Source: Candidatus Vogelbacteria bacterium RIFOXYD1_FULL_44_32
GTDB taxonomy: Bacteria > Patescibacteriota > Minisyncoccia > Phycocordibacterales > XYD1-FULL-46-19
Assembly (NCBI GenBank): GCA_001823065.1
Contig: MHTJ01000003.1
Location: 106,869-170,868 of the forward strand
Direction: 5' to 3'
Length of the DNA: 64,000 nt
Below, one piece after another: positions 5,656 to 34,671 of the stretch. Below the pieces are notes generated by a model that had not been told where the DNA came from, made no database searches, and saw only the letters and a program-made list of their open reading frames with translations. The position numbers and the translations under genes are program-made. Positions within the stretch are counted from its first letter, which is position 1. Each line of letters starts with the position of its first letter.

Positions 5656-5892
5656 GTTTCCACAACAGAGAACGAAAGTGGCAGGAAGTCCAGACCAGCG
5701 ATAGGTAGACAGATGTTTTATGTCCAATTCGTCTCATTCTCAAAAAAGAGACCCCGACCCACAAACCCTAAAGTCTCAATGGAAAAGTTGCTCAAAAACC
5801 CTTACACTGCCTTATGTCACGGGTACCATACCCGAGTACACCGCAAAATAAGAAAACCAAAGCAGAGCTTTGGTCGACTATATTTTGCGATG

Positions 5893-6016
5893 AGGCGGAG
5901 GGATTTGAAAGCCGCAGGCGCGAAGCCGACCGCAGTAGCGGTCGTTGCCGAGGCAGGGTCGTGAAAATTTTGTTTTGACGAAAACAAAATTATTCCTGAT
6001 CAAATCCCTCCGCCTC
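5893..6016. repeat. nested inverted repeats: 17-bp IR (gaggcggagggatttga / tcaaatccctccgcctc) enclosing an 11-bp IR (aattttgtttt / aaaacaaaatt)
   Basis: Read directly from the sequence. The structure sits at the boundary between the GC-rich phage-like segment and the host-like genes. Confidence 0.6.
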
Positions 6017-6058
6017 AATGATTTCTACCGTACTTAAACTAGTTATAAATTAAAAAAA

Positions 6059-16192: not shown

Positions 16193-16637
16193 AGTTTGTT
16201 GTTGGATGATCGCTCGATGAGGTTTTAATTATCTCATAGGGAGGAAAGTCCGAACACGTACTTTAATTTTTTAAAGTAACCGGGTAGCAGGTAATACCTG
16301 TCGCGCGCAAGCGCCGAGGTGCGAACAGAGACGCCTAGAGGTGAAAACTAAAAGGCACCCCACCCGCCTGACGGCGGGTGGGGTGAGCTCTATCGAAAGG
16401 TAGAAGTTGAAACGGCCAAATCCTTACTCACGTGCAAGATCGTATTCTCAATGCTTGGCATTGAGTCTGTATCGCTCGAGGTGATTGGTGACAATCATCC
16501 CAGATAAATGGTCATCCCCTGTGGAATAAAGAGTTTAAAGTTTAGAGGTATAACAGATTCAGGACAACTGTCAGTGTCTGTGAATATTTTGAACTTTTTA
16601 TTCCACAGGGACAGAATTCGGCTTATAGACAACAAAC
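16193..16637 (+). ncRNA. rnpB: RNase P RNA (bacterial type A)
   Basis: GGAGGAAAGTCCG (P4 5' strand) near the 5' end and ACAGAAtTCGGCTTAta (P4 3' strand) near the 3' end. The P1 helix pairs agtttgttgt with acaacaaact. The roughly 445-nt region has no ORF. Confidence 0.8.
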
Positions 16638-16647
16638 TAAAAATATG

Positions 16648-26479: not shown

Positions 26480-26743
26480 TTGAGTTATAGTGACGGGATG
26501 GATGAGGAAACAAAAAGCTTGTTAGAAGAAAATTTGGCGATCGGGAAGGATAATCGCCGGATGTTGAAAAAACTTTTGTCCTATCGCCGTTTAGAGGCGA
26601 TTTATTCGGTTTTGAAGTGGGTGGTGGTGCTGGGTATCGGCCTTTGGACTTACTATTATCTTCAGCCCTATTTAGACCAAGTTTTAGCCGCGTATAATCA
26701 GCTAAACGGGGTTTTCCAAAATTTGCCCATTCCAGGGCGGTAA
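26480..26743 (+). CDS. small membrane protein (87 aa)
   Basis: ORF with one hydrophobic helix. Confidence 0.4.
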   Translation: MSYSDGMDEETKSLLEENLAIGKDNRRMLKKLLSYRRLEAIYSVLKWVVVLGIGLWTYYYLQPYLDQVLAAYNQLNGVFQNLPIPGR

Positions 26744-26811
26744 ATTTTCATTTTTTCGGGCTTTATTTCTGGTCTTAAACATGCTATAAAATAAGGGTCA
26801 TATTTTGACAT

Positions 26812-27149
26812 GCTTGGGTAGCTCAGTTGGTAGAGCATTCGCCTGACCCTAAAAACTTCGGGCCCTTCCACTGGAAAGTGGATTGAAAAAGTGGGTGAAT
26901 TCGGGGAAAACCGTTTGCTGTATAGTAAGCGACAATCCCGAGCCAAGCCGAGCACCACTTTTGAATTTTATAAACTTCTAAAATTCAAAAGTAGTGCTCG
27001 GAAGGTGTAGAGACTATCCCGAAAGGGAGTACTTCTACTACTGTAGAGGGAAGCGCCCACCTCCAAAATCTATTTATAGAAAGGATGATGATATAGTCCA
27101 AACGCTCTGGAAGAGCGAAGGGTCGGCGGTTCGAACCCGCCCCCAAGCA
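26812..27149 (+). tRNA. tRNA-Phe (anticodon GAA) interrupted by a group I intron after U33 of the anticodon loop
   Basis: The 5' exon (26812..26844) gives the acceptor, D-arm and 5' anticodon stem. The 3' exon (27110..27149) gives GAAGA, GCGAA, the variable loop, T-arm GGCGG-TTCGAAC-CCGCC and acceptor CCCAAGC, which pairs perfectly with the 5' GCTTGGG. The spliced anticodon loop is CUGAAGA. Confidence 0.75.
26845..27109 (+). ncRNA. group I intron (about 265 nt) within tRNA-Phe
   Basis: The 5' exon ends in U and the intron ends in G. The P7 strands are gAGACUAu and AUAGUC (compare Tetrahymena cAGACUA / AUAGUC). The intron has no ORF. Confidence 0.65.
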
Positions 27150-27590
27150 CAAAAGAAGCCCCGAAAGGGGTTTTTCTTTTGTGCTTGGGGAGCAAGCCGT
27201 CTGCTCGGCTTGCGTGCGGGTTCGAAAGACGGAGACATGTCGAGCTTGCGAGACAGTCGAGTCCGGGTAGGAGCCACACAATATTTTAGGAGTGGAGCGA
27301 ACTAAAATATTGATGTGAGCTGACGCCGAACCCGCCCCCAAGCACACACGAAGGCCCCGCAAGGGGTCTTTTTCGTGTGTGCTTGGGGGCGGGTGGGGAA
27401 AGGTCGAAAACCGGGAGGTTTTTGTGGAGGAAGGCAACGAGCGAAGCGAGTGTTGGAAAACCGTGCCCGCCCGCAACGCCTGAGCTTGCGATGGCGGGCG
27501 GGGGTTTCCAAGTTCCCGTCCCCAAGATTAATAAATTAGCGAACTAAAATATTGATGTGAGCTGACACCGAACCCGCCCCCACAAATTTC
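27131..27590 (+). repeat. degenerate tandem repeats (units of about 195 and 245 bp plus a partial third), each starting with a copy of the tRNA-Phe 3' end (cgaacccgcccccaagca) followed by a long hairpin/terminator and ending agcgaactaaaatattgatgtgagctgac
   Basis: Direct comparison of 27131.., 27326.. and 27571... Each unit has a 13-15-bp perfect stem (ccccaagcacaaaag / cttttgtgcttgggg, and the variant with cacacg) around a mini-hairpin and a T-run. Confidence 0.6.
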
Positions 27591-27665
27591 TAATTTGACT
27601 TTTCCACTCCATCAGTTAGATTTTATCCAGGATTTAGAAAAACTTCTAAGAAGGAGGATCTCGTC

Positions 27666-27896
27666 ATGTCTGAGTATTTGAAAGAGGGTCAGTGGATTGC
27701 ACGTGTGGCACTCATTGACCCGAAAAAAGAGAGACAGAAATGTCCCAACTGTGGTTCTGTTGGTCAACTTCGGACGGAATTGAACTATGAGGAAAAAGAA
27801 GTGATCGCTTGCCGTGATTGTTCCTGTGAATTCCTTCCCAAACGCAGATGGTTTTTTTGGAAGGGATTTTTGGTTACCCACGGTATACCATTTTGA
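27666..27896 (+). CDS. small zinc-ribbon protein (76 aa)
   Basis: CPNCG...CRDCSC cysteine pairs. A strong aaggagg SD lies upstream. Confidence 0.5.
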   Translation: MSEYLKEGQWIARVALIDPKKERQKCPNCGSVGQLRTELNYEEKEVIACRDCSCEFLPKRRWFFWKGFLVTHGIPF

Positions 27897-27914
27897 ATCT
27901 TGCTGTTTCAGCAA

Positions 27915-27954
27915 ATCCCCCGCGAGCCTAGGCTCGCGGGGGATTAAATTTTTT
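27915..27954. terminator. rho-independent (bidirectional) terminator
   Basis: atcccccgcgagc-ctag-gctcgcgggggat followed by taaatttttt. Confidence 0.7.
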
Positions 27955-27983
27955 ACTGCTTTGTTTTCACTTTCAATTTTACA

Positions 27984-28898
27984 TCAACAAGGCCCCCGAT
28001 AATTTTCTGGGTCTGGGACTTGTGATTCAGGAATATACCAAATATCACCACAGTGGCCACTTAAATACCAAGAAACTCCCTCACTAGAAACAATGGCTTT
28101 TTCGTTGAGGGTCATAGTAGAGGGGTTTATACCAATCAGTTTCTGATTTTCAAAGTAGACATTAGTTTTGTCTAAACCAAACAGGAGTGAAGAGCCGGGG
28201 AATTTCTTCTCATAAAACTCGTTTGGATTAGCATTTTCTACCTTTTTACCCTCGAAATATATCCCAGTTTTGTCTCTAAAATAACTGTAATTAGACACTG
28301 GTTGGAAAGTATTGGGGTCAGCGCCAACTACCACTTCGGCCTGATAGAAAACTTTGTTTTTATCTTTGGCATAGGGCCATTTTATTAGTTCAAATGTCTT
28401 AGTGTCGGCTTCGGGTAAAGGATGCTTAAAGGTTTCGTAAAAATTTATAATGACACTAATCTTATCGTTTTCCCTTATATAATAACTACCGCCTTTGGGT
28501 GGTATTTCTTTTGGTGAGTAATAAATAGTAAATGTTTCTGGATCCATGTCGGGCACGATTCCTTTGATTCTTGTTGGGCTGTTTTTACTATCTTTTTGGT
28601 AGTAATAGGCAGTGGTAGAATACACGCTGTTTTTATCCTTAAAATATCCGTCACCTATATAGGTAAGAGTTTTCGGGTCCCTAATCTTAATTGTGGTTGT
28701 TGCCCCTCCGTCCCAATCTCTATAAGATAGTATGTTGCCATTAAGTTGGTATTCATCTTCAAAAACTATAGTTTTTTGGGGCCAAAACACATATCCAGTA
28801 CAGAAGATTGCAATTAGAAGTAAACAGACAGCGACCACAATAAACTCTCTTCGATTTAAAAGAGATTTTATTTTTTCTAACAGATTACGAAAATCCAT
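27984..28898 (-). CDS. DKNYY-family membrane-anchored protein
   Basis: Repeated DKN.VY / DKTGIYF / DKTNVYF motifs and an N-terminal TM segment. Confidence 0.65.
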   Translation of the reverse strand: MDFRNLLEKIKSLLNRREFIVVAVCLLLIAIFCTGYVFWPQKTIVFEDEYQLNGNILSYRDWDGGATTTIKIRDPKTLTYIGDGYFKDKNSVYSTTAYYYQKDSKNSPTRIKGIVPDMDPETFTIYYSPKEIPPKGGSYYIRENDKISVIINFYETFKHPLPEADTKTFELIKWPYAKDKNKVFYQAEVVVGADPNTFQPVSNYSYFRDKTGIYFEGKKVENANPNEFYEKKFPGSSLLFGLDKTNVYFENQKLIGINPSTMTLNEKAIVSSEGVSWYLSGHCGDIWYIPESQVPDPENYRGPC

Positions 28899-28915
28899 AT
28901 AAATATCTTACCTAC

Positions 28916-34448: not shown

Positions 34449-34457
34449 CAAAACGAC

Positions 34458-34497
34458 AAAATGGACTGAACTGCTTCAGTCCGTTTTGCGTTTTGTG
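34458..34497 (+). terminator. rho-independent terminator after tRNA-Glu
   Basis: 13-bp stem aaaatggactgaa / ttcagtccgtttt with loop ctgc, then a T-rich tail. Confidence 0.65.
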
Positions 34498-34671
34498 AAG
34501 TCGGAGCTATGTTTTCTTAGTAAAGAAAACGAGCGAGACCGGGTCTGGAAAATTCACGAATGGCGATGAGTGAATTATTGTGGACCACAACAACCTTGCA
34601 CGCGAAGCGTTCCATATCTTCATATTCCCAATAAGTGGCAACCAAACGGGGGAGATGTTACGATATTTGGC

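Follow-up and report, generated by a model that had tools for sequence, protein, structure and literature searches.

The locus described here lies at 26812..27149 on the plus strand of a 64-kb stretch of DNA (the whole stretch is called the window, and all positions are counted in it) and comprises the two halves of a tRNA gene separated by a spacer of 265 nucleotides (nt). It is read as a single tRNA-Phe(GAA) gene, split between U33 and G34 by a group I intron of IA type that lacks a homing endonuclease, with a probability of about 0.93. An earlier note on this DNA had proposed such a split gene, placing the acceptor 5' strand, the D arm and the 5' strand of the anticodon stem (ending in CU) in 33 nt at 26812..26844 and GAAGA, the 3' strand of the anticodon stem, the variable loop, the T arm and the acceptor 3' strand in 40 nt at 27110..27149, with a spacer preceded by a U (26844) and closed by a G (27109); the sequence bears out all of these assignments. 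The features identified are collected in Table 1.

The split tRNA-Phe gene and its intron

The 5' exon ends in C32 and U33, the latter being the -1 U of the intron, and the 3' exon begins with G34, A35, A36, G37 and A38 and ends in the discriminator A73; CCA is not encoded at the 3' end of the gene. With the spacer excised, the exons meet at the junction ...AGCAUUCGCCU followed by GAAGAGCGAAGG and form a 73-nt cloverleaf, called tRNA-Phe(gaa) when ARAGORN is given the ligated exons. This tRNA has a 7-bp acceptor stem (GCUUGGG/CCCAAGC), a standard D arm, an anticodon stem UUCGC/GCGAA, the loop CUGAAGA that the earlier note had predicted, a T arm GGCGG-UUCGAAC-CCGCC and a discriminator A, and the two halves are perfectly complementary in both the acceptor and the anticodon stems. 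ARAGORN with introns allowed identified tRNA-Phe(GAA) at 26812..27150 with a 265-nt intron. In default mode over the window the gene was missed, so intron-aware calling is needed to avoid reporting a "missing" tRNA; in a small genome this may be the only tRNA-Phe. The Phe identity set of Escherichia coli and Thermus thermophilus is formed by G34, A35, A36 and the discriminator A73 (with U20). All of these elements (U20, G34, A35, A36 and A73) can be read in the ligated exons.

The spacer matches the Rfam group I model (RF00028, Intron_gpI) at 26840..27118 over its full length (model positions 1-253), with 55.2 bits against a gathering score of 50 and E = 2.8e-11 for the whole window. The same model gives 56.2 bits in the orthologue carried by contig L017, which is labelled uncultured Candidatus Saccharibacteria and is the nearest relative found. 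The minimum free energy (MFE) of the intron is -92.7 kcal/mol (z = -6.1 against shuffles), and the unconstrained MFE fold already contains P2, P3, P4, P5, P6a, P7.1, P7.2 and the inner hairpin of P8. Four open reading frames (ORFs) of at least 50 aa overlap the spacer and none has a match in Pfam, so that no homing endonuclease is identified in the intron.

Owing to repeats of G and A, the same mature sequence would result from several cut positions, of which only one, between U26844 and G26845 at the 5' end and between G27109 and G27110 at the 3' end, offers both a -1 U and a terminal G. A guide octamer, CUUCGGGC (26856..26863, CUUC-GGGC), complements the exon junction GCCU-GAAG, the pair at the 5' splice site being a G·U wobble. 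Its GGGC (26860..26863) pairs with exon GCCU (26841..26844) in P1, as the earlier note had seen, and this helix is extended by G26845-C26859 and A26846-U26858. Adjoining it, and absent from that note, is P10, where CUUC (26856..26859) pairs with GAAG of the 3' exon (27110..27113). ARAGORN shifts the intron by one base in the 3' direction, to 34/35. The P1 alignment of Rfam itself, which places the splice-site U of the model on a C, was rejected; the U26844·G26860 register agrees with the omega-G, P10 and the family.

The core of the intron comprises the P4-P6 stack and the P3-P7-P8 pseudoknot. P7, the helix that holds the guanosine-binding site and that the earlier note had recognised, is confirmed as the pairing of GACUA with UAGUC and is where RF00028 aligns to the P7 core. 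P5 varies within the family and aligns poorly (68% paired). In P6a a 26-nt inverted repeat (I1) is 92% complementary, and the distal part of the arm (26953..26996) exceeds that of L017 by 35 nt, which gives a near-perfect 26-bp hairpin; the sequence of this part is single-copy in the window. Between P7 and the 3' strand of P3 stand P7.1 and P7.2, the hallmark of subgroup IA, which points to an intron of IA type; phage-type IA introns such as T4 td carry them in the same place, and IC3 introns are not known to have them. The two-hairpin variant was also identified in seven other loci (L017, L023, L093, L112, L034, L107 and L061). At the 3' end, the tail CGCUCU (27103..27108) imitates the 5' anticodon-stem strand in that it can bind exon AGAGCG (27112..27117) on the far side of the splice site, and this pairing stands in for the P9 hairpin of most relatives. 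The Rfam alignment treats the 3' tail as a terminal hairpin.

Table 1. Features identified at the split tRNA-Phe gene, downstream of it and at the two further copies of the structured element. Percentages are paired cells in the alignment of 49 homologous introns.
Feature	Position	Strand	Description
5' exon of tRNA-Phe(GAA)	26812..26844	+	33 nt, GCTTGGGTAGCTCAGTTGGTAGAGCATTCGCCT; from sequence and ARAGORN intron mode; identical in L017
P1	26841..26863	+	exon GCCU and intron GA (26841..26846) with UCGGGC (26858..26863); U26844·G26860 wobble
Group I intron	26845..27109	+	265 nt; omega-G at 27109; no ORF with domain match; from RF00028, ARAGORN and fold
P2	26868..26881	+	hairpin CCACU-GGAA-AGUGG; 5/5 pairs with compensatory changes; 98.3%
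P3, 5' strand	26891..26897	+	GUGGGUG; partner CGCCCAC at 27054..27060; 99.7%
P4	26901..26941	+	UCGGGG (26901..26906) with UCCCGA (26936..26941); invariant in family
P5	inside P4	+	CGUUUGC (26912..26918) with GUAAGCG (26925..26931)
P6	26942..27006	+	GCC (26942..26944) with GGU (27004..27006); encloses P6a
P6a	26948..27001	+	long hairpin; 8/8 pairs with compensatory changes; 95.6%
P7, 5' strand	27012..27016	+	GACUA; partner UAGUC at 27094..27098; invariant, 49/49
P7.1	27017..27028	+	UCCC-GAAA-GGGA; between P7 and P3'
P7.2	27032..27049	+	CUUCUAC-UACU-GUAGAGG; between P7 and P3'
P3, 3' strand	27054..27060	+	CGCCCAC
P8	27062..27085	+	UCC with GGA around inner hairpin UCUA-UUUA-UAGA; 79.6%; one-sided changes only
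P7, 3' strand, and tail	27094..27109	+	UAGUC (27094..27098), short 3' tail, omega-G 27109
3' exon of tRNA-Phe	27110..27149	+	40 nt, GAAGAGCGAAGGGTCGGCGGTTCGAACCCGCCCCCAAGCA; from sequence and ARAGORN; uninterrupted orthologues 72/73 identical
Terminator-like hairpin	27154..27175	+	with T run, just 3' of the tRNA
Structured element, copy 1	27181..27344	+	in the 195-nt insert; begins GCUUGGGG, ends with copy of tRNA 3' end
Degenerate second unit	27420..27586		ends in tRNA 3' fragment
Zinc-ribbon ORF	27666..27896		76 aa; weak Lar-like match
Remnant copy of hsp20 3' end and terminator	27914..27985		just past the stop codon of the DKNYY ORF
DKNYY-family ORF	27984..28898	-	304 aa
Structured element, copy 2	5890..6017	+	from covariance model
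Structured element, copy 3	34453..34602	+	starts 4 nt after tRNA-Glu

Homologous introns and uninterrupted orthologues

One genome per species was scanned with a pattern drawn from P3-P4, which yielded at least 119 loci with the intron core, most of them in metagenome-assembled genomes (MAGs) of Patescibacteria (Saccharibacteria, Paceibacterota/Parcubacteria, Magasanikbacteria, Berkelbacteria, Gracilibacteria and others). With introns allowed, ARAGORN identified tRNA-Phe(GAA) split at the same position in 53 of the loci listed, L017 included. In other listed loci this type of intron was called in tRNA-Asn(GUU), Thr(UGU), Asp(GUC), Pro, Ser, Leu, Ile, Val and Glu, the anticodon and position calls being probably imprecise for some of these non-Phe genes; the inserts of Asn(GUU), about 550 nt long, probably hold endonuclease genes. 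The core motif was also found at two Zymomonas loci (L002 and L117) with no split tRNA call there. Among viral contigs, the P3-P4 IA core motif (GUGAAUUCGGGGAA...AUCCCGAGCC; GTGAATTCGGGGAA...ATCCCGAGCC) was identified in 56 IMG/VR contigs (L243-L298), where one lies inside a tRNA gene (tRNA-Tyr, L246) and none in tRNA-Phe; presumably the viral and Zymomonas motifs belong to IA introns in other genes. No viral contig had an exact match to the intron or to the repeat downstream of it, and a search of a plasmid collection with 26700..27700 gave no match.

The 49 distinct homologous tRNA-Phe introns all end in G, and the U33/G34 position fits P1 and P10 in every one of them. The exon ends and their guides matched as GGACU-GGUCC in 23, GCCCU-GGGGC in 10, GGCCU-GGGCC in 4, and CGGCU-GGCCC and GGAUU-GAUCC in one each. 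The guide base opposite nucleotide 37 of the tRNA is U in the 29 introns of A37 genes and C in the 20 of G37 genes, a perfect covariation between tRNA and guide; the covariation of P1 and P10 supports the splice site. A pairing of the tail with the exon like the one described above, of 4-6 bp, is present in most but not all of the other G37-type introns, where it follows the exon (GCUC/GAGC, GCCUU/GAGGC), and was not seen in the A37-type introns.

The core structure, drawn up from the window sequence, was evaluated on a MAFFT alignment of the 49 introns (A1). Its positions were paired in 90.7% of the cells, against 75.8% in column shuffles and 35-47% with partners slid by 1-3 columns, and its covariation score was 0.413 against 0.146, with none of 500 shuffles attaining the observed score. 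Compensatory changes are located in P2, in the outer pairs of P3 and in P6a; the two outer pairs of P3 alternate between U-A and C-G in 18-22 of the 49 sequences. MAFFT misaligned P1 (56% paired, ragged 5' ends), and P1 and P10 were therefore analysed sequence by sequence.

The uninterrupted form of the gene was identified by scanning metagenome contigs for the ligated junction AGCATTCGCCTGAAGAGCGAAGGG, which is present in at least 120 contigs. In six of those listed the tRNA is identical to the ligated exons of the window at 72 of 73 positions. Many of these contigs are syntenic with the window, sharing LepA, tRNA-Gly(CCC), tRNA-Arg(CCU), Hsp20, a PrsW-family protease and a class I tRNA synthetase. 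The LepA protein of the window itself recurs unaltered in ENA ERZ27254749, SRR2090173 and JGI 3300003358. In L168 the order tRNA-Gly, tRNA-Arg, tRNA-Phe is that of the window and the tRNA-Phe is uninterrupted (72/73 identical, 71 bits on RF00005, called tRNA-Phe(gaa)), with no group I intron on the contig according to RF00028. Synteny with the window, at a nucleotide identity of about 65-76%, was likewise seen in contigs such as L017 and L038 that bear the label Candidatus Saccharibacteria, and L017 carries the same split gene, its intron lacking 35 nt of distal P6a. As the gene is split in the window and L017 and uninterrupted in L168, the intron is present or absent at one orthologous locus. 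This offers a natural comparison, at a shared chromosomal position, of intron-plus alleles (window, L017) with intron-minus ones (L168 and others).

Outside distal P6a, the exons and intron of the window are identical to those of L017 at 296 of 296 positions, whereas the flanking genes are 73-77% identical (about 75%), which shows that the locus is not decaying. Nearby, tRNA-Arg is identical at 70 of 73 positions and tRNA-Gly is much more diverged. The full identity starts exactly at the 5' end of the tRNA and also spans a 74-nt palindromic hairpin after it (27327..27400), the stretches compared being 26812..27151 and 27327..27400 of the window with 5458..5816 of L017.

Repeats and a structured element downstream of the tRNA

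The 3' end of the tRNA-Phe gene, CGAACCCGCCCCCAAGCACA (27132..27151), comprises the 3' half of the T loop, the 3' strands of the T and acceptor stems and an A, and it recurs downstream at 27327..27346 and in part at 27569..27582, on the plus strand. Inverted copies are located at 27207..27223 and 27380..27396. Set against L017, 195 nt are inserted in the window between the first two direct copies, and about 1.5 kb (27401..28915) has no counterpart in that syntenic contig. The 1.5 kb holds the degenerate second unit, the zinc-ribbon ORF, the hsp20 remnant and the DKNYY-family ORF of Table 1; a C-terminus common to the DKNYY ORF and hsp20 was considered and rejected, as the hsp20-like sequence is located past its stop codon. 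Repeats of this kind were identified in 11 of 108 related contigs (L175, L173, L155 and L208 among them), each repeating its own variant of the tRNA-Phe 3' end. L175 contains at least five tandem units of 88 nt, each with the tRNA-Phe 3' half from G34, which is the insertion point of the intron. Such repeats could derive from several rounds of integration into the tRNA and excision from it, or from duplication tied to the structured element described next.

This element, of about 130-175 nt, is multi-copy and often stands directly after tRNA genes (Phe, Glu, Gly and Asn) on the same strand. It is characterised by the motifs CGAA-AG-NCGGAG, GCGAG-NCCGGGU and UUAGUGA...GACNCCGA, by variable closing stems and by an internal loop of 5'-G(G/C)A-3' and 5'-GA-3'. 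From seven units RNAalifold derived a structure of 44 pairs, and the covariance model built on it identified 27 copies at E<1e-5 in the loci examined, including two further copies in the window. Other copies are found in L168 (4173..4301), L006 (6735..6870), L191 (four to five copies), L199, L154, L127, L171, L211, L131, L140, L237, L126, L094 and L038. The structure is paired in 93.3% of the cells, against 63.5% when shuffled and 33-45% when slid, and all 44 pairs show compensatory changes, figures obtained on a model-fitted alignment that favours the structure by construction. Rfam 15 has no family for the copy after tRNA-Phe (E up to 1) or for the other two window copies (E up to 10). The copies linked to tRNA-Phe end in a duplicate of the acceptor and T-arm 3' strand of the tRNA-Phe of their own genome, which may let the element be processed like a tRNA.

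Several known RNAs were considered for the element and rejected: tmRNA (no G3·U70, too short), the RNA of the signal recognition particle (multi-copy, no Rfam match), a hammerhead ribozyme (the junction strands do not fit) and a riboswitch (multi-copy, located after tRNAs). The scar of an integrase att site was also rejected, as it leaves the compensatory changes in all 44 pairs unexplained. A hairpin that replaces a helix in the second copy of L199, GCACCACUUUG, resembles the P6a arm GCACCACUUUUG of the intron, a likeness that may be due to chance. Elsewhere in the window, a class A RNase P RNA was identified at 16194..16641 on the plus strand, with 100.1 bits against a gathering score of 100; it has large insertions, one of about 90 nt near the 3' end included, and its P12 region is poorly matched.

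The complete identity of the stretch shared with L017 may reflect very strong constraint or, more plausibly, a recent exchange between lineages. It is proposed tentatively, at somewhat less than even odds for the two parts jointly, that a cassette of about 360 nt, made up of the split tRNA-Phe gene and the palindrome 3' of it, was recently swapped laterally between two lineages of Saccharibacteria whose flanks differ by about 25%, and that the element is an undescribed multi-copy, covarying structured RNA. If such an exchange took place, allele replacement would be a route of lateral spread for tRNA introns without an endonuclease, and an orthologous locus would be polymorphic for the intron. 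Since the identity of the intron-plus alleles is far above that of their surroundings, the persistence or spread of these introns becomes testable with more genomes.

Alternative readings and known systems

The split-gene reading is carried by the anatomy of the locus, its membership of the group I model, the covariation and the uninterrupted tRNA in relatives. On this basis the precursor transcript of the gene would measure about 340 nt. In it the intron would fold into its P3-P8 and P4-P6 core, and the guide CUUCGGGC would bind the last bases of the 5' exon to form P1, which places the U·G wobble at the splice site. Attack after U26844 would come from an external guanosine bound at P7, the guide would also hold the 3' exon (P10, CUUC/GAAG), omega-G27109 would enter the G site and the exons would be ligated. 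The product would be the 73-nt tRNA with the loop CUGAAGA, to which CCA, not being encoded, would be added later.

Some observations weigh against this reading. P4, P6 and P7 are invariant in the alignment and hence uninformative, and the search pattern was itself drawn from P4. The exon part of P1 and P10 measure 4 bp each, against family means of 4.9 and 5.6, and the P9 hairpin of most relatives is absent. Catalysis and the use of the tRNA in the cell are deduced from sequence, in a view limited to the 64-kb window, and this may not be the only tRNA-Phe gene of the genome. The short P1 and P10, the missing P9 and this limited view would suit an intron that is real but catalytically dead or dependent on protein, the gene being a pseudogene or needing a host factor and the cell drawing its tRNA-Phe from another gene. 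This is improbable, as the core elements are all intact, with an RF00028 score above the gathering threshold, and the exons and intron are fully conserved against L017 despite flanks that differ by about 25%. Moreover, 3' tails as short as this one are widespread in the family, and in the Patescibacteria of PMC13011429 the intron-split Asn and Asp genes are reported as sole copies whose introns, related to the present one, self-splice in vitro.

The recurrence of tRNA-Phe 3'-end fragments downstream (at 27328 and 27570) and the arrays of 3' halves in contigs such as L175 raise another explanation: that the two halves are unrelated fragments, which the earlier note had named as what would overturn its proposal. 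They might, for example, be remnants of integrative elements that flank a group I intron by chance. Their perfectly complementary acceptor and anticodon stems, the guide that pairs with both and covaries across 49 homologues, the same split gene in L017 and 52 other genomes among the matches listed, and an uninterrupted gene with the ligated sequence in syntenic relatives such as L168 leave this explanation hardly any probability; nor did ARAGORN find in the window any complete tRNA joining the 3' half to another 5' half. A further concern is that the mature product might not be a phenylalanine tRNA, its decoding or charging being altered by G37 or by another splice position, such as the 34/35 placement of ARAGORN. 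In bacterial tRNA-Phe, A37 is usual and G37 after A36 is atypical. G37 (27113) thus counts as a point against the reading, yet it is present in 20 of the 53 split genes listed and in more than 100 uninterrupted genes, all those retrieved by the junction pattern having it, as the pattern itself specifies G37. Every splice position allowed by the repeated G and A bases leads to the same mature sequence, and only U33/G34 satisfies the -1 U and the omega-G and fits P1 and P10 in 49/49 introns. With the anticodon GAA and the discriminator A73 in place, and uninterrupted genes with the same loop called tRNA-Phe, an altered product is very unlikely.

Among known systems, the tRNA-Leu(UAA) intron of cyanobacteria and plastids, a self-splicing group I intron, resembles the window intron in interrupting the anticodon loop of a tRNA and in the U·G wobble of its 5' splice site; it differs in its insertion at 34/35, its subgroup (IC3), its host tRNA and its lineage. 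The cyanobacterial tRNA-fMet(CAU) intron occupies the same 33/34 position, after U33 (PMC13011429), in another tRNA; it is assigned to subgroup IC3 by the intron database cited in Williams 2020 (bioRxiv 10.1101/2020.01.27.920355), and some copies are described as carrying a PD-(D/E)XK endonuclease (PMC13011429). The window intron falls outside IC3, and therefore apart from the classical Leu, fMet, Arg and Ile2 introns, because P7.1 and P7.2 are present and both P9 and the long two-stem 3' terminal region of IC3-type seeds are absent. Its core groups with the IA-type seeds (Phe.2Ug, Lys.2Ug and Asn.4Ug) and not with Leu.3Ug or Arg.5Ug. The viral introns with the core motif, unlike it, are almost never in tRNA genes (1/56, the tRNA-Tyr mentioned above).

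The closest likeness is to a class already described, a point that was also absent from the earlier note; its published status is taken from a seed name in Williams 2020 and from Table 1 of PMC13011429 (mSystems 2026). In Williams 2020 the four classical split bacterial tRNAs are expanded to 21 classes, and the seed Mba55.Phe.2Ug denotes tRNA-Phe, a site after U33, a -1 U and an omega-G. The window intron shares these features, the P7.1/P7.2 insert between P7 and P3' and the order of the helices, and is identical to the seed at 180 of 210 aligned positions; it departs from the seed in a longer loop of P1, a P6a of much greater length, the two-hairpin variant of P7.1/P7.2 and an almost absent P9. 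In Table 1 of PMC13011429, Phe(GAA) 33/34 is entered for a complete genome of the Patescibacteria, where ARAGORN, tFind and the pipeline of its authors agree.

According to the same work, nearly all tRNA introns of Patescibacteria belong to subgroup IA and most lack endonuclease genes. The window intron resembles them in its IA-type structure, its length (about 250 nt in those introns), and the lack of a homing endonuclease, and its host may belong to the same phylum, as the synteny with Saccharibacteria MAG contigs suggests. It would be one more case of a documented pattern, IA-type introns in Patescibacteria tRNA genes, and does not change the picture by itself. The focus of that work is on tRNA-Asn and tRNA-Asp, the only introns given there as tested in vitro, with 35/36 insertions, and the Phe intron appears as a table entry. 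It also argues that horizontal transfer is infrequent, whereas the window locus is 100% identical to that of L017 between flanks that are about 75% identical.

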